This document shows, piece after piece, positions 22,858 through 54,102 of a stretch of 64,000 nt of DNA. The stretch is from assembly GCA_963758495.1 (NCBI GenBank), contig CAVWVI010000003.1, positions 1,408,001 through 1,472,000 of the forward strand. Direction: 5' to 3'. The notes under the pieces are model-generated. The model saw only the letters and a program-made list of their open reading frames with translations, was not told where the DNA came from and did no database searches. How positions within the stretch are numbered: the first letter of the stretch is position 1; each line of letters opens with the position of its first letter. The position numbers and the translations under genes are program-made. Origin of the DNA: Oligoflexia bacterium. GTDB taxonomy: Bacteria; Bdellovibrionota; UBA1018.

Positions 22858-24435
22858 TTACATCAAAGGACTACTCGACTGATTTTTATCAGCCAACTGC
22901 TTCGCCCCCGTATCGAGATTCTCATGGAAAGCATTATAGATTTCCGACAGATCTTCCACAGTCATCGTAATTGTGGAACCTGCCTTACAACTATCGAGCT
23001 GTGAAACCTTGACTTTCAGAGAAACTAAACCGGAGTTTCCAATCATTTGCTCTCTTTGGATCATGTCTCCTACTTCCAGGATACAGCTTCCATTGGAACC
23101 ATTATCATAGGTCTTGCCGGAATTACTCGATACCAAGAAAACATACCGATCGTCTTTAAGGGCTGCCTCAAATCCTGTATTCATCGGAGTGCTATTCTGT
23201 CGATCCTGTGTAACCTGCTCAACCTGACTTGCCAGTTGATCCTGGACCTCCTGATTCACTGCTGTGGAACCTGAAGCCTGGTTTGAAACATCCGCGGCTG
23301 CCTGGGCAGTTTCCGCCGCAGCTCGGGCGGAATCGGAAGCAGCCTGTGCCGCTTGCGCAGCTTCAGCGTCTACCTGAGCCCGGATTTGCTGAGCTTCTTC
23401 TTCAGACTCAGCCGCCGATACTCGATCAGCATTCGCCTGCCTAGCAGCTTCTCTCGCTGCTTCAAGCCTGGACTCCCAGGCCACTTCCAAATTGGAGGCG
23501 ATAATCCAATCCACTAGAGCATAGCTAGGACGATAGTAGTTTCTGGCCCAGTATCCATAAGGACGCCAGTACCATCCCGAATAGTGATGGTACCAACCAT
23601 AAGAAGGCCAAGGGTTATTATTCCAATAGTTATATCCCCAAATTGGATTATAGGGATTGCCGTAACCCCCGCCAAAAAGGGCAAATTCAAACGCACCGAA
23701 AACTAATGAGCTTTCATAAAATCGAAGGGGTGAATGCCAGTATTGGCAGCCAAAACTCCCGTAGCTTCGATTGAACGACAAATTGCCGTTGATCAAACTA
23801 CTATGATACGAATAATTTCGAACTACGATCGATTGATTATTCCGAATCACGATTTTTTCGTTGAAGGTCTGATTGCCGCGCTGGACTGTCCGGCTTCCGT
23901 CAGCATGATAATTGATTTTCGTACCCCCATAAGCTTCCGAAGTCGGCTTCCCGGCAGAATCAAAAGAAGTCGTTCTTCCTCCCGAATGCACCACTTGCGA
24001 ACCATCCTGATGCACCACGGTTCTCGATCCATCTGCGTAGTGGCGAACTTCGCCCCCTCTCGGTAATGGCTCAACGTGATGAGGTGCGGAAGCGGGTGGG
24101 GCTGGTGGATTATGTGCCACCGGTGGGTTGTGTGGCCCGGAAGGTTGTCCGGGAGGATTGTGAACTACGGGCGGATTAACGTGTGAAGGTGGGTTAACAT
24201 GCGGAGGATTAATATGCGGGGGTGGGTTAACGTGGGGTGGCGGATTAATGTGCGGTGGCGGATTGACGTGTGGAGGTGGATTAATGTGCGGGGGTGGGTT
24301 GACGTGTGGAGGTGGATTAAAATGCGGCATTGAGCCTCCTCCCCCAAAGTGAGGCATCGCCAAAGTGGAGGAAGTGCCACCTAGCAAATTGGCAATGATC
24401 AATAGACCGAAAGCTTGGATTGATGTGAATTTCAT
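22858..24435 (-). CDS. Secreted protein with H(V/I)NPPP repeats, Tyr/Trp/Gly-rich segment and Ala-rich coiled coil
   Basis: Likely start MKFTSIQAFGLL with signal peptide; the ORF track extends to 24561. Confidence 0.8.
   Translation of the reverse strand: MKFTSIQAFGLLIIANLLGGTSSTLAMPHFGGGGSMPHFNPPPHVNPPPHINPPPHVNPPPHINPPPHVNPPPHINPPHVNPPSHVNPPVVHNPPGQPSGPHNPPVAHNPPAPPASAPHHVEPLPRGGEVRHYADGSRTVVHQDGSQVVHSGGRTTSFDSAGKPTSEAYGGTKINYHADGSRTVQRGNQTFNEKIVIRNNQSIVVRNYSYHSSLINGNLSFNRSYGSFGCQYWHSPLRFYESSLVFGAFEFALFGGGYGNPYNPIWGYNYWNNNPWPSYGWYHHYSGWYWRPYGYWARNYYRPSYALVDWIIASNLEVAWESRLEAAREAARQANADRVSAAESEEEAQQIRAQVDAEAAQAAQAASDSARAAAETAQAAADVSNQASGSTAVNQEVQDQLASQVEQVTQDRQNSTPMNTGFEAALKDDRYVFLVSSNSGKTYDNGSNGSCILEVGDMIQREQMIGNSGLVSLKVKVSQLDSCKAGSTITMTVEDLSEIYNAFHENLDTGAKQLADKNQSSSPLM
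24170..24327 (-). repeat. 18-bp-period coding repeat (about 9 units of H[V/I/F]NPP[P])
   Basis: PHFNPPPHVNPPPHINPPPHVNPPPHINPPPHVNPPPHINPPHVNPPSHVNPP with synonymous codon variation. Confidence 0.9.
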
Positions 24436-29586: not shown

Positions 29587-31228
29587 ATGGGCCTCAATCT
29601 GGGGAGTGGTATAATAGAAACTGCTTCGTAAAGTAGTTTCAACCAGTCTAACCAGCGTGCCAAGGAGGGAACGTTGTTATGAACTATTATATTGGAATGG
29701 ATGCACATGCAGCAACAACAACCGTCGCAGTCGTGGATGAAAAAGGGAAAAATATTGATCGCCAAAATTTTGCCACTACAGAGGCAAATTTACTTGGATT
29801 CATAAGAAAGATTAAGGGGAAGAAGTTCCTGACATTTGAAGAAATGCATCTGGCTCAGTGGTTGTATATCATACTAAAAAAAGAGGTAGATCACCTGGTA
29901 GTTTGTAATCCTGTTTATGTAGCTGAAAAACAGGGAGCAAAAACAGACTTTAGAGATGCTCTACATTTAGCTCAGGAACTTAGAACGGGGCATTTGGTTG
30001 CCGTTTATCATGATGAAAGTCACTGGATCCAGCTGAGGGTTCTAGTGTACGGCTATTTGGCCTTAGTAGAAGAAATCATTCGAACTAAGAATAGACTGAA
30101 GGCAGTATTTAGATCCGAGGCGATCGATACATCACAAACAGATTTTTATGAAAAAACGAGAGACCGATTAAAAGAACTGTCTCATGAGAGTGCACGGTTT
30201 GTTGCTGAGAATCTTTATTGGCAGATTGATGGTTTAGAGAAAAGAAAACGAGAATACCGTGAGGTTCTTCAGCGTAATTCTAAAAAATATAAACCTATTA
30301 AAAATCTCATGACTATTCCCGGGATTAGTACGGTTCGAGCAAGTATTATCACAGCTGTAGTTTGCACACCGCACCGTTTTAAGAATAAACACCAATTCTG
30401 GGCTTATTGTATGTTGGCAAGACATATCCAAATGAGTGATGGAAAAATCTATGGAAATAAAAAAATTCATGGAAGGGCAGATCTAAAAGAAGTTTTTTTA
30501 GGAGCAGCCGAAAGTGCAATGAGAAGTGAAGGGTTCTTACGAAATTATTACGAAGAACAAAGAAAAGAGATTCCTTATCAGGACGCTAAAAGGGCTCTAG
30601 CTAGAAAAATTGCGGCACTCAGTATAGCCCTTCTTAAGAATAATGGAACTTATCAAGATGACTATGAAAAGCAACAAGAGGAGAAAGCTCAATTTCGTAA
30701 AATGCTAAATAAAGACGTTTGAAAACATTTCAAGTAATCTGATTACGCATGGAAAATAGGCGTATCCTGAAGACCGAATTTGTTCCTCCTTGTAGGACGT
30801 TCAAACTGAAGGTCAGTGGAAGATCTCTGGAAGGGATACTGATTGCTTGGGATGGGGGATGAGGCCCATTAGGAAGCGTGGTCGTCTAACGATAAGACAG
30901 GCCCAAAGGTAGCGACTGGCACGCCCCCGTATTATATCCAAAATTGTCATGGCACGGGCTGTATTCAAAAATACGTATTGTTCGGTCGACGATTTTTTCA
31001 CAGGCGAATGAAGGCGTGTTTAAACGGACTTTCTATTTAGACAATTGAAAAGCAATCATAAAAAAGTGGTCCCTCTATTGAAGATCGTATTTGCGTCGAT
31101 TTCACTTACGAATCAGATTCTGAGCTAGTGCGGAGTCCAGGGACGCCAGCGTTGATCATTAAAATATCAACAAAGGTGATTGGAGATGTGTATCAAAAAT
31201 CGCTTGCTTTCTTACAGGCACTTTCGAT
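29587..31228 (+). mobile_element. IS110-family insertion sequence with short left end and about 500-nt structured right end; exact ends uncertain by about 15 nt
   Basis: Transposase ORF; TATAAT at 29610 and TTGCTT at 31204; the flanks GGGCTAATCGC (29573-83) and GTGATTAGTCC (31230-40) re-form a stem when the element is removed. Confidence 0.75.
29679..30722 (+). CDS. IS110 family (DEDD/RuvC-like) transposase/recombinase
   Basis: YIGMDAH, FEE, KTDFRDA, LMTIPGI, F..YCML...SDGK, ALARKIA; SD AGGAGG. Confidence 0.93.
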   Translation: MNYYIGMDAHAATTTVAVVDEKGKNIDRQNFATTEANLLGFIRKIKGKKFLTFEEMHLAQWLYIILKKEVDHLVVCNPVYVAEKQGAKTDFRDALHLAQELRTGHLVAVYHDESHWIQLRVLVYGYLALVEEIIRTKNRLKAVFRSEAIDTSQTDFYEKTRDRLKELSHESARFVAENLYWQIDGLEKRKREYREVLQRNSKKYKPIKNLMTIPGISTVRASIITAVVCTPHRFKNKHQFWAYCMLARHIQMSDGKIYGNKKIHGRADLKEVFLGAAESAMRSEGFLRNYYEEQRKEIPYQDAKRALARKIAALSIALLKNNGTYQDDYEKQQEEKAQFRKMLNKDV

Positions 31229-33422: not shown

Positions 33423-34890
33423 TTACAATAGATTTTGTATCGCCTCTACAGCTTCTCGAATGACTGGATCATGATCCATGCCTGCTTCAATTTTACTACA
33501 TGCGTGTAAAATGGTGGTGTGATCTTTGCCGCCAAAATAACTACCAATCTCCTTGAAGCCAAGACCCGTGTACTTTCGCATGAGATACATCGCAATTTGT
33601 CTCGGAAGTGCTACAGCTCGAATTCGAGTAACAGACTTTAGGTCTTGAATTCTCAAATGGTAGTGCTTCGCCACTGCTTGTTGAATCGATTCGATTGTAA
33701 AATTAGACCCTTCATCAGGAACGGCCGTTTTCAACTCATGTTTTGCCATCTCGAGAGAAATTTCAGCTCCAGTCAATGATGCTTGAGCTTGAAGCCGAAT
33801 TAAAACACCTTCTAACTCACGAACATTAGACTTAATATAAGAAGCTAAAAAAGTCGCGACATCATCTGGAAGATAGATATCATCTCGCTCTGCTTTCGCT
33901 TTAAGAATCGCAATTCTGAGTTTCAATTTCGGGAGGGCTAATATCGGCGACTAAACCCCACTCAAATCGAGTCCTCACACGCTCTTCCAATCCTTCAATT
34001 TCCTTCGGAGGCCGATCACTTGAAACCACGATTTGCCTCTTTGAGCTATGGAGTGCATTAAAAGTATGAAAAAACTCTTCCTCACTGGTGTTTTTGCCTG
34101 CAATAAATTGAATATCGTCGATCAAAATCATGTCGTAACTGTCGCGATACTTCGCTCTAAATTGTGGCATCCGCCTATGCTGTAAAGAATCAATGAGCTC
34201 ATTCACAAATTTTTCAGCTGAAAGGTAGGCCACCCGTGCATTTGGGTTTTGTGCGAGCAAGCGATTTCCAATTGCATGAAGTAAATGCGTTTTTCCTAAT
34301 CCAGGAGGGCTATAAAGGAAAAGGGGATTGTATTGGCGTGCAGGCTGTTCAGCTACCGCAACTGCAGTTGCATGCGCAAATTGATTACTCGCACCCACAA
34401 CGAAACTATCAAAAGTATATCGAAGATCCGGATAATCGTTACCCGATCGAAGACTGGTATGCACTACCCCAGGCGCTGAAGTGACTAATGGAGTGCCGCC
34501 TGAGGACTGAGGGGCGGATATCTGAAAGTCTTGTTCGATCAGGTTAAATTTAAAATCCTTTATAATTTCTTTCACTTGAAGCTGTAGCTCACAGGGTGAG
34601 CCTGCCACTTGTGCAAGAGCGCCCTCAATGGCTTTTTGATAATGATCTCGCACCCATTGGGCCGAAAAGTCATTAGGGGCAGCCATGACTGCTTTATGGC
34701 CATTTTGAACTTGCTCTATCTCCAGCAATTCCAATGGATAGATCCACGCATGGAACTGGTTGGGTACCACCGTCTGCTCTAAAAGACGACAAGCAGCCTG
34801 CCATAATTCGGGCAGTTGCCCTGTGTTGAAGTGAATTGAATTATTCATAGCCGAACTAATTGAACTAACATGAGGGCTTCTACTTGACAA
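33423..34890 (-). pseudogene. dnaA: Chromosomal replication initiator DnaA, split by a +1 frameshift near 33918 (real lesion or sequencing error)
   Basis: N-terminal part has GLGKTHLL, IDDIQF and RTRFEWGL; C-terminal part has RIAILKAKA, SNVRELEG and GGKDHTT. Junction GAA ACT C AGA ATT; removing one base restores ...PPEIETRIAIL... Confidence 0.93.
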
Positions 34891-41611: not shown

Positions 41612-41679
41612 TTTTGATATCCCAATTTGGGATATCAAAAATGGAATCTCACGGTGAACGACAAAACCCCCCTTTCTTC
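41612..41679 (+). pseudogene. Relic ORF6N gene fragment retaining the palindrome TTTTGATATCC-CAATTTG-GGATATCAAAA
   Basis: From 41614 it reads LISQFGISKMESHGERQNPPFF, aligning with LNSQFPISSTEHGGRRYLPYIF in the ORF6N protein at 53185. Confidence 0.6.
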
Positions 41680-41925
41680 AGACGGGTAAGAACAAGTACT
41701 TAAACGAACTACGCAAAGAGAGTAGTTTAGCCTCTAAAGTCTACGACTTCCACCGCCTTAAATGACACTTTAAGTATGTTCAAAAAGTATCTTTGCGACC
41801 TTATTAAATTCATACAAATTAGTCAAATATCCAATTTAAAATCAGATAAATTTAGTCAACAATTTATTACAAAAATCGCCTTAACTTCGAAAATACTAAA
41901 AATTATTACTCAGGTACCGTTTTTT

Positions 41926-42410
41926 TGTGGATAAGTCTGTGGATAAGTGTGTGGATAACTTTTCGTCAAAAAACTTATCCACAAGTTATCCACAGGGTTA
42001 TCCACAAGTTATCCACATCTTACACAAGATGTTTGTCTATAATATCAATACCTTATAAAGTTATCCACATCTTACACAATTTCTATCCCGAATGGAATAT
42101 TTGATTAGTTAACTTTATTACTAGGTCTTTGTGGATAACTCTAAAAAATGACCTCAAAAAATGGCTGTTTTTAGTCAATACATGACTACCCATATCAGGT
42201 AAAAAAGTTATCCACAAAATCGTGTGGATAAGTGTGTGGATAACTTTTTTTTAGGGGTAAAATAAAGTTATCCACAAAATTGAAAAAGTTATCCACAGAC
42301 TTATCCACAAAGTTATCCACATGGTTTCTATATTAATTTCAATAAGTTAAGTGAGTTATCCACTTATCCACACGCCCTACTACTACTACTGTCTTAATAT
42401 ATATATAATT
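41926..42410. other. oriC: Chromosomal replication origin oriC
   Basis: 17 perfect DnaA boxes (TTATCCACA/TGTGGATAA) by hand count plus one single-mismatch box; IHF site TATCAATACCTTA (42043); terminal box pair followed by CGCCC, (TAC)4 DnaA-trios (42378-42389) and an AT run; directly upstream of dnaN. Confidence 0.96.
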
Positions 42411-52351: not shown

Positions 52352-52423
52352 AAGCACTACGCGGAGTCCTGTTGCGCCGGGAATCCAAATCTTTACGGCA
52401 CAACAGGACTCCGTGTAGTGCTT
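52352..52423. repeat. 28-bp-arm inverted repeat with 16-nt loop
   Basis: AAGCACTACGCGGAGTCCTGTTGCGCCG / CGGCACAACAGGACTCCGTGTAGTGCTT, 26/28 Watson-Crick pairs. Confidence 0.9.
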
Positions 52424-52480: not shown

Positions 52481-52571
52481 TTTAAGGACGCAATTTGCGA
52501 CCTTAAAGAAAAGTGAACATGGTAACTATCAGAAATACTTATCTTTTACGGAGATGAGTATGATTCTTTAA
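52481..52571 (+). pseudogene. Relic ORF6N gene fragment containing a palindrome copy
   Basis: From 52482 it reads LRTQFATLKKSEHGNYQKYLSFTEMSMIL*, matching the ORF6N L-x-x-Q-F-x-x...HG...Y-L...FTE segment. Confidence 0.7.
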
Positions 52572-52625: not shown

Positions 52626-53119
52626 AACTTGAGGTCGCAAATTGCGACCTCAAGTTGCGATGCGTTATTTATAGTCTTAGATATCAAAACTTGAGATGCC
52701 AATTTGGCATCTCAAGTTGTAATTTTCTCGGCGTTCATTGGGTTTTACATTTAAAATCAACTAGTTATATAGGAAATCTTGAGATGCCAATTTGGCATCT
52801 CAAGTTAGATTTACCTAAATTTGCCTACCAATTTTTATTTTAAAATTCATATATACATAAACTTGAGGTCGCAAATTGCGACCTCAAGTTGCGATGCGTC
52901 ATTTGTTATTTCGGGTACAACTTGAGGCGCCAAATTGGTACCTCAAGTTGTAAGATTCTAAAATTTAATAAAAATTCACATTTAAAATCAATTAGTTAGA
53001 TAATAAAACTTGAGGTGCTAAATTGGTACCTCAAGTTTTATAAGCTTTGGAAGTTCAAGTTTTGGGGTGTTAATTTAAGATTTCAAAAAACTTGAGGTCG
53101 CAAATTGCGACCTCAAGTT
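52626..53119. repeat. Array of seven 31-bp palindromes, A[A/T]CTTGAG-N4-[C/T]AAWTTG-N4'-CTCAAGTT
   Basis: Copies start at 52626, 52688, 52776, 52860, 52919, 53007 and 53089; spacers are 31, 57, 53, 28, 57 and 51 nt. Confidence 0.97.
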
Positions 53120-53184
53120 ACAGAAGTAAATTTTACTATGATTTAATATGGTGCGAGATTCTAAAAGGGTGTAGATCGCATGCC

Positions 53185-54102
53185 ATGCAATTAACAATTA
53201 GCGAAATTAGGCGACGGATCTACTTTATGCGTGGTCAGCGTGTAATGCTGGATGTCGACTTAGCAAAATTCTACGAAATTTCAACTAAGCGTTTAAATGA
53301 GCAGGTAAAGAGAAATATCAGTCGGTTTCCGGAAGATTTTAGATTTCGACTTACAGAAAATGAATGTGATGAATTGAATTCACAATTTCCAATTTCAAGC
53401 ACTGAGCATGGAGGAAGGCGATATTTACCTTATATTTTTACGGAGCATGGTGCCACAATGTTAGCAAGTGTTTTGAATACTGACCGGGCCATTCAAGTAA
53501 ATGTAACTATTGTTCGTGCTTTTGTTCAAATCCGTGAGTCCTCAATCCAAAAAGAGCTAGCATTAAAAGTAATGACACTAGAGAAACAGTACACTGAGGT
53601 CTCGAAAGTTATCTCCGATGTTCATTTAAAACTTATGGCCCTGACTTCGCTACAAAAGACTAATTCTTTTAAAACTCGTTACAATAAAGCTGACTTAAAA
53701 GAGCAAGAACATGTCTCGCTTGATACTAAGTTAGAGACACTGACTCTCGTTACAAAGGAAGCTAAAAGAGATTTCAATAACGCTAACGCTATCAATGAAG
53801 TGCCTCACAATCTTATAATCGGCGAAATTCAAAAAGCTGTAGCAAGATATTATAATGTAAAAATTCAGGATTTACGAAGTACAACTCGCATCAAGGTAAT
53901 CGCATTGGCCAGACAAATCGCGATGTATTTAGTCCGAAAACATACGGGGATGAGTTTTAAAGACATTGGAACTCATTTCGGTGGTAAAGATCACACAACA
54001 ATTATGCATGCTTGTAGTAAGGTTGAAGTGAGTATAAAAATAGATGCTTCAATTCGGAACGCTATAGAGTCGATTGAAGGGGTTTTGTCAAAAAATATTT
54101 AA
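53185..54102 (+). CDS. ORF6N-domain protein fused to a DnaA domain IV (DnaA-box-binding HTH)
   Basis: N-terminus IYFMRGQRVMLDVDLAKFY...LNEQVKRN..RFPEDF.F.LT...GGRRYLPY.FTEHG..MLASVLN; C-terminus RQIAMYL...FGGKDHTTIMHA. The frame is also open from TTG 53092 in the last palindrome. Confidence 0.92.
   Translation: MQLTISEIRRRIYFMRGQRVMLDVDLAKFYEISTKRLNEQVKRNISRFPEDFRFRLTENECDELNSQFPISSTEHGGRRYLPYIFTEHGATMLASVLNTDRAIQVNVTIVRAFVQIRESSIQKELALKVMTLEKQYTEVSKVISDVHLKLMALTSLQKTNSFKTRYNKADLKEQEHVSLDTKLETLTLVTKEAKRDFNNANAINEVPHNLIIGEIQKAVARYYNVKIQDLRSTTRIKVIALARQIAMYLVRKHTGMSFKDIGTHFGGKDHTTIMHACSKVEVSIKIDASIRNAIESIEGVLSKNI

Follow-up and report, generated by a model that had tools for sequence, protein, structure and literature searches.

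The seven 31-bp palindromes located at positions 52626-53119 of the window (the whole 64,000-nucleotide stretch of DNA analysed here) are best explained as copies of a site that normally lies inside ORF6N genes and is likely bound by a dimer of the ORF6N protein. For the ORF6N-DnaA domain IV fusion protein encoded next to the array, in whose gene the internal site has decayed, the predicted operators are the A copies, three in number, and a degenerate eighth palindrome at 52482-52506. This reading, which is drawn from sequence comparisons, is given a probability of approximately 75%.

The array lies in an AT-rich island after atpE and before the fusion gene. Its members are odd-centred palindromes of the form AACTTGAG-N4-CAAWTTG-N4-CTCAAGTT, starting at 52626, 52688, 52776, 52860, 52919, 53007, and 53089, and the seven matches to this pattern compare with none expected from 100 shuffles. 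They are arranged in the order A-B-C, A-B-C, and A, i.e. a unit of ~232 bp containing three palindromes is tandemly duplicated and followed by one further A copy, and the three inner-arm classes are thus not seven independent events. As originally proposed, symmetry is maintained while the inner arms vary: all 12 pairs are matched in five copies and in a further site at 41612, and 10 of 12 in copies 5 and 6. Palindromes A1 (52626..52656; half-site TTGAGGTCGCAA), A2 (52860..52890), which is identical to A1, and A3 (53089..53119), which is nearest to the gene with its centre 81 bp upstream of the ATG at 53185, are predicted cognate operators. B1 (52688..52718; half-site TTGAGATGCCAA) and C1 (52776..52806), which shares the core of B1, are non-cognate sites of the R class. 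B2 (52919..52949) and the decayed C2 (53007..53037), i.e. copies 5 and 6, are also of the R class, and the left half of B2 is identical to one half-site of an R-class array at the corresponding atpE locus in another genome (G037). The degenerate eighth copy is of the E class, with 11 of 12 pairs. No strand is assigned to any of these palindromic sites.

Two exact plus-strand matches to the IHF consensus, one to the left of C1 (52755..52767) and one at its duplicated counterpart (52986..52998), are tentative candidate IHF sites; both come from one duplicated unit, and the window contains 12 such matches versus 5.7 expected. Near other external sites, three were found versus 0.3 expected from a lenient mononucleotide shuffle. 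Matches within ORF6N genes coincide with codons of the helix and of FQL, and the protein sequence itself may account for them. The array was not detected by Tandem Repeats Finder, no DnaA boxes were found inside the arrays, and a promoter scan yielded 7 hits versus 7.1 expected, with no promoter across A3.

The fusion gene (53185..54102, plus strand) encodes a protein of 305 amino acids and probably starts at the ATG at 53185, where its homologues begin. The ORF6N profile (PF10543) matches with 116 bits (cut-off, 27.8) over positions 2-86 of 86, and the DnaA domain IV profile (PF08299) matches with 101.8 bits (cut-off, 31.5). The latter domain (Bac_DnaA_C; 53824..54024, plus strand) retains the basic-loop arginine and the DHTT..H motif when aligned with the host DnaA; in Escherichia coli DnaA, these residues read the DnaA box. 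Neither the AAA+ domain III nor domain I of DnaA was found, PF08299 being the sole DnaA match in the fusion protein, which therefore does not qualify as the replication initiator DnaA; the host dnaA gene lies at 33423-34890. Three PADLOC PDC-S05 models match the fusion protein (best E-value, 1.7e-48), as does the pRha profile, weakly and below its cut-off, and PHROG anti-repressor models also match ORF6N proteins. ORF6N proteins are present in viral contigs, and a viral scan with the whole fusion protein returned only DnaA-like pieces. The best E-value in a PDB sequence search with the protein was no lower than 0.079; in the search for a KilA-N/Dachshund-like putative DNA-binding fold, the best Foldseek match, to a Ski-like structure, was not significant (0.037), and the VIA alignments to Dachshund (Z 6.2, rmsd 3.1, 84 aligned) and Mbp1 (Z 4.5, rmsd 3.5, 85 aligned) both fall below Z 8. 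A search of 401 genomes of the phylum and 116 of the order found full-length fusions only in the host's family; others come from one metagenome contig and from five database proteins without genomic context. The nearest named fusion homologue is labelled Bdellovibrionia, which suggests the group of the host, and an 86-column tree does not decide between single and multiple origins of the fusion.

The original prediction described the repeat unit as the coding sequence of an ORF6N motif. Its translations were reproduced, i.e. the copies read from TTG give LRSQIATSS (three copies), LRCQFGISS (two), LRRQIGTSS, and LRC*IGTSS, and positions 53374-53400 in the gene encode LNSQFPISS. Symmetry is largely lost there, as stated: the decayed in-gene site (53374..53398) retains 8 of 12 pairs, both of its halves are non-cognate, and it matches none of the seven array copies. 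The direction of the relationship did not stand, and on the sequence evidence it is a DNA site that, when translated, yields the ORF6N motif, not the reverse. The peptide is not the conserved unit, because the palindrome is read in another frame in 10 of 218 genes and the peptide drifts in genes where the symmetry of the site is lost. The R, A, T, and S of the motif are >90% conserved in 60 stand-alone homologues, and the LRSQ..TS form is missing in all seven fusion proteins of alignment A1. In the AlphaFold model of one homologue (P0011), which also has a long C-terminal helix (105-142), the site-encoded peptide forms a loop without secondary structure, with pLDDT partly <50.

Palindromicity across ORF6N genes, which had been proposed as a check, is pronounced. 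A set of 244 loci gave 236 domain matches, of which 214 had full anchors and 180 remained at <90% identity, and 168 of these 180 domains contain a palindrome of at least 10 of 12 pairs in the linker, compared with none of 358 control windows taken from these genes. The mean after synonymous shuffling is 6.9 pairs, and 153 of the 180 domains exceed all 100 shuffles. The palindrome is also present in 72 of 74 domains found with patterns outside the helix and site, and in 218 of 233 domains of an enlarged set. The site has been lost in five of nine fusions (four retain it) versus 10 of 224 other ORF6N genes. One homology search gave at least 7999 ORF6N matches among 8000 candidates scored. Several unusual arrangements were observed: in the fusion gene at L093:2290-2390 (G037:C313), the in-gene site is doubled 75 bp apart and the linker is lengthened in frame; at five loci (L060, L097, L109, L111, and L129), adjacent ORF6N genes differ in specificity class; and a single open frame at L095 contains two ORF6N domains.

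The sequence of the site is tracked by a small set of protein residues. The codons of the predicted recognition helix, T34-N44, lie at 53284..53316 (plus strand), with K35, R36, E39, and Q40 corresponding to profile columns 29, 30, 33, and 34, respectively. In the P0011 model, column 33 is inside a helix (39-48). The residue at column 33 predicts half-site positions -5/-4, namely E with CG (103/104), Q with CA (151/156), K with TC (22/24), and R with NC (48/48), and 90 of 96 scorable half-sites obeyed this rule in a held-out set of 53 domains, 50 of which have a site. Excess mutual information with the site is highest at columns 33 (1.42 bits), 30 (0.94), and 34 (0.30), which form an i/i+3/i+4 face of the helix; helix-side information is confined to these and columns 27 and 29, column 29 tracking position -7 (K with G, 272/276). 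The variable columns 39-57 lie between the helix and the site and carry no more than 0.08 bits although they are nearer to the site, which argues against linkage. The outer arm is tracked by columns 73 (position -10; R with G, 293/298, and K with A, 78/78) and 74 (position -8), to which R79 and Y80 of the GGRRY loop (53410..53424, plus strand) correspond, but columns 71-74 adjoin the site in the gene and their covariation could be due to linkage. At each of the five positions examined, leave-one-out prediction was more accurate than the majority baseline (e.g. 421 versus 187 of 436 at -4 and 424 versus 346 at -10).

On trees that were built without the helix, site, and loop and rest on <90 columns, the helix requires 93 changes and the site 95, and specificity classes are therefore not lineages. 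In 39 of 40 sister pairs differing in the helix, the site also differs, and both members match the rule in 37. A strict phylogenetic test on starred branches left 5, 5, and 3 independent pairs, all of which are concordant, with p values (0.06-0.25) that are not significant. The helix disagrees with the in-gene site in 8 of 217 genes.

The locus in the window provides a natural control, as the array next to the gene is still predicted by the protein although the internal site is gone. When rules are derived from genes with a retained internal site, they predict TTGAGGTCGCAA for this protein, which is exactly the half-site of the three A copies. Agreement is complete (5/5 positions) for each of the six half-sites of A1, A2, and A3, 4/5 for the 52482 copy, and 2-3/5 for those B and C copies that were scored (C2 was removed by the core filter of the scan and is unscored), although three of the five predicted positions are also the family majority, so that discrimination rests on -5/-4. 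Across the family, 11 of 233 domains retain eight or fewer pairs, and two of these (L171 and L241) still show a degenerate site. The other nine lack an internal site, and a cognate site outside the gene is present in eight of them, the exception being L094, for which upstream sequence is missing. By a fixed rule that leaves out the present gene and genes with <200 bp upstream, an upstream site was found for four of seven genes without an internal site versus 31 of 216 others (p = 0.013, with kin that are not independent). Among the eight genes with a helix-mismatched internal site, four have any external site, and all four have a cognate one. In related loci, 26 of 38 nearest upstream sites are cognate and 12 are non-cognate, whereas sites further upstream are cognate in only 2 of 13. 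A second preferred position of external sites was observed ~520-580 bp after the ORF6N start, near the expected stop and often of a non-cognate class (L110, L112, L114, L132, L178, L260, L014, L019, L120, and L149). The contig carrying the closest relative of the fusion gene ends within an identical A site (L088:2166-2194; G058:C318), and short-read assemblies may break at ORF6N arrays and thus under-report them.

These results favour the proposal that the copies are self-derived operators, with binding as a prediction: the residue-to-base code and the presence of external cognate sites where internal ones are lost both support it. The ORF6N protein would bind the palindrome as a dimer, occupancy of the nearest site (A3) would repress transcription of the fusion gene itself, and the upstream copies would provide additional binding sites or titrate the protein. 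Simple promoter occlusion does not explain why the site is intragenic in most genes. Four of the seven array copies are of the R class, which is the weakness of the operator reading. The simplest account of them is gene turnover at the atpE locus: they may have been left by an earlier R-class gene, and may have multiplied when the ~232-bp unit, which also contains the A copy, was duplicated in tandem. A fusion gene with an R helix and an R-class array is located beside atpE in G037, in the opposite orientation, and no R-class ORF6N gene was found in the present assembly, which is 92% complete. A second ORF6N-DnaA domain IV gene of this genome (L003; G000:C3:1403653-1404585) encodes a Q helix and has Q-class sites on both sides, i.e. 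two upstream as an inverted pair and four downstream in units of 65-66 bp with similar spacers (region G000:C3:1403419-1404809).

An unlikely alternative is that the array acts as a decoy or sensor platform, in which sites of several classes titrate ORF6N proteins of incoming phages or other elements, or the adjacent gene reads their arrival. It would suit the perfect symmetry of B1 and C1 in a genome with no assembled R-class gene, the predominance of non-cognate sites further upstream in relatives (11/13), and the viral, anti-repressor, and PDC-S05 associations of ORF6N proteins described above. However, decay is seen in B2 and C2, the R-class copies produced by the duplication, while the A copies are all perfect, the R-class gene at the atpE locus of G037 accounts for the R copies historically, and the array of the paralogue is almost wholly cognate. 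That the palindromes are instead a cassette pool, by which the in-gene motif is rewritten through recombination or gene conversion, is hardly credible. The copies do translate to alternative versions of the motif, and the non-cognate in-gene site of L132 has the same core as an upstream site. The last copy alone is in frame with the gene, as had been claimed (the seven copies are in frames 2, 1, 2, 2, 1, 2, and 0, and the in-frame reading that joins A3 to the gene is open from the TTG at 53092 through the stop at 54102), but this carries no weight, the nearest upstream copies of relatives being in frame in 10 of 38 cases, as expected by chance. An ORF6N-like coding flank is found upstream at 0 of 69 external sites, and a GG-type motif downstream at 6 of 69, compared with a background of 144 of 1306. 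The use of other frames, the free drift of the peptide without the site, the rarity of helix-site mismatches, and an in-gene relic unlike every array copy also argue against such a pool.

The original prediction had further offered hairpin-forming mobile or RNA units, and a reading in which the unit is a DNA hairpin or cruciform (a recombination site, HUH substrate, or mobile element) or a structured RNA, with protein covariation as a secondary feature, is very unlikely. Symmetry does far exceed the column-wise expectation out to position 13 (0.86 versus 0.43), sites often occur at both ends of ORF6N genes as cassette ends would, and the RNA folding of the region is strong (z -13), as that of any palindrome array would be. 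However, positions -2, -3, and -6 are fixed in sequence, and mismatches show no sense-strand G-U bias either in genes (22 G-T, 38 A-C, and 43 other) or at external sites (18 G-T, 26 A-C, and 26 other); in view of the mild A-C excess, a hairpin of the bottom strand is conceivable. An Rfam scan gave 58 hairpin matches below threshold and no family at gathering score. Nor are the sites dispersed: a profile scan of the 3.66-Mb genome, with five weak matches of 6-7 pairs set aside, located symmetric sites in three places only, namely the array, the surroundings of the paralogue, and 41612-41640. Short palindromes arrayed beside a gene also resemble REP/RAYT, MITE, CRISPR, and DGR systems. The restriction to three places rules out a REP or MITE family. 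A CRISPR array is ruled out because the repeats fall into classes, the spacers are mutual duplicates, and no cas family occurs in the five adjacent ORFs, and the absence of coding-like flanks at all 69 external sites argues against antigenic-variation cassettes or a DGR. No transposase, cas, or reverse transcriptase genes were found among the adjacent ORFs.

Cis sites within the gene of their own binding protein are known, e.g. the iterons of lambda O and parS in spo0J/parB, and in lambdoid operators and the helix swaps of 434 and P22, specificity is set by the recognition helix. The operator reading resembles these cases in placing a site within or beside the binder's gene and in the role of the helix. 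Unlike the lambda O and parS sites, the ORF6N site is one palindrome of 27 bp, whose class has changed together with the helix on many occasions in a large family, and no replication or partition partner adjoins the ORF6N array. By analogy, the closest precedent would be Roi of phage HK022, reportedly a helix-turn-helix protein that binds inside its own gene beside an IHF site. The similarities are a palindrome in or beside the gene of its predicted binder (intragenic in most ORF6N relatives) whose sequence tracks the recognition helix, and the weak pRha match; the two tentative IHF-consensus matches in the array may be a further parallel. Roi is one phage gene, unlike the ORF6N family, and we know of no family-wide residue-to-base code or relocation to external arrays for it. 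The Roi work (Clerget and Boccard 1996, J Bacteriol 178:4077, PMID 8763934) is cited in PMC3430580. ORF6N is one of ten domain-swapping, DNA-interacting families of the Bro network, with Bro-N, KilA-N, pRha, ANT, and P22_AR (PMC10111431), and its fusion to a new C-terminal domain fits this pattern, although the accessible text of that paper gives neither a DNA site for ORF6N nor a DnaA domain IV fusion. In the available text of the PDC-S05 study, the sole tested member has a RhuM domain and lowers T7 and T5 plating ~1000-fold (bioRxiv 10.1101/2024.09.26.614923), whereas the present protein has ORF6N and is a candidate member of this group by profile match. A literature search, with most subscription journals outside its scope, found no paper on ORF6N palindromes or on the fusion.

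ORF6N is a very large uncharacterised family that is listed by defence catalogues without a mechanism. If the operator reading is correct, the DNA target of each member could be read from its sequence and the family would be directly testable, and its changes of protein-DNA specificity would constitute a natural data set; its best-conserved peptide would be a by-product of the DNA site.

A connection with the replication origin is suggested by the DnaA domain IV fusion and the flanks of oriC, which point to a possible replication regulator. The predicted oriC (41926..42372; no strand assigned) lies upstream of dnaN and comprises 17 clustered DnaA boxes. An orphan R-class palindrome with TATCC/GGATA arms (41612..41640, centred at 41626; no strand assigned) lies 286 bp from its first DnaA box and is non-cognate for both resident ORF6N proteins, and a tentative E-class half-site (41793..41803, plus strand) lies 133 bp before that box. 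The orphan was ruled out as a gene remnant by flank scores of -27 and -32. An ORF6N site or gene flanks oriC in all three fusion-bearing genomes with an assembled origin (G000, G051, and G037), the distance from bare site to DnaA boxes in G051 being 277 bp, compared with 0 of 27 other dnaN loci at their DnaA-box clusters; a match was obtained in 62 genomes, the survey covered the 30 best of their dnaN loci, and several non-fusion loci were short-flanked. Ten extended dnaN loci yielded no further ORF6N site or gene. A half-site near oriC in G016 was left out of the count, as it lies in coding-like sequence and has no left arm. The interval between the acyl-CoA dehydrogenase gene and oriC varies from 0.4 to ~11 kb, which indicates a general insertion spot; like the non-cognate class of the orphan, this speaks against a functional link.

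Also against a functional link, the fusion may simply have arisen where the 3' end of dnaA once abutted oriC. In Bdellovibrio, a dnaA-dnaN origin is described (PMC5124646). A more far-reaching and rather doubtful idea is that ORF6N is a naturally reprogrammable DNA-binding family in which ~5 residues specify five bases and the code lies beside its own target, that in one family of Bdellovibrionota-like bacteria the module, fused to DnaA domain IV and having lost its internal site, forms a bridge between ORF6N arrays and the DnaA boxes of oriC as a new regulator of replication initiation, and that stacked arrays record past specificities.

Beside oriC in G051 (L358:10858-12150), a bare Q-class palindrome is joined to a DnaA domain IV remnant and followed by an intact R-class fusion gene, an arrangement that looks like gene turnover beside the origin. 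The host dnaA gene (minus strand), which is the sole full dnaA in the assembly, lies ~7 kb from oriC-dnaN and faces away; near 33901-33926, its coding sequence breaks into two frames that overlap, likely owing to an assembly error. A fourth DnaA domain IV match (G000:C3:1535855-1535989; L037) is partial and contains an internal stop. A hairpin element at 52352-52423 has at least 40 dispersed copies in the genome (76-91% identity), including one 1.3 kb from the second ORF6N gene; it is REP/MITE-like, and its dispersal rules it out as part of the ORF6N system. The window also contains an ORF of 347 amino acids that resembles an IS110-type transposase by eye (29679-30722, plus strand) and an 18/36-bp tandem repeat of ~8 units at 24170-24327.
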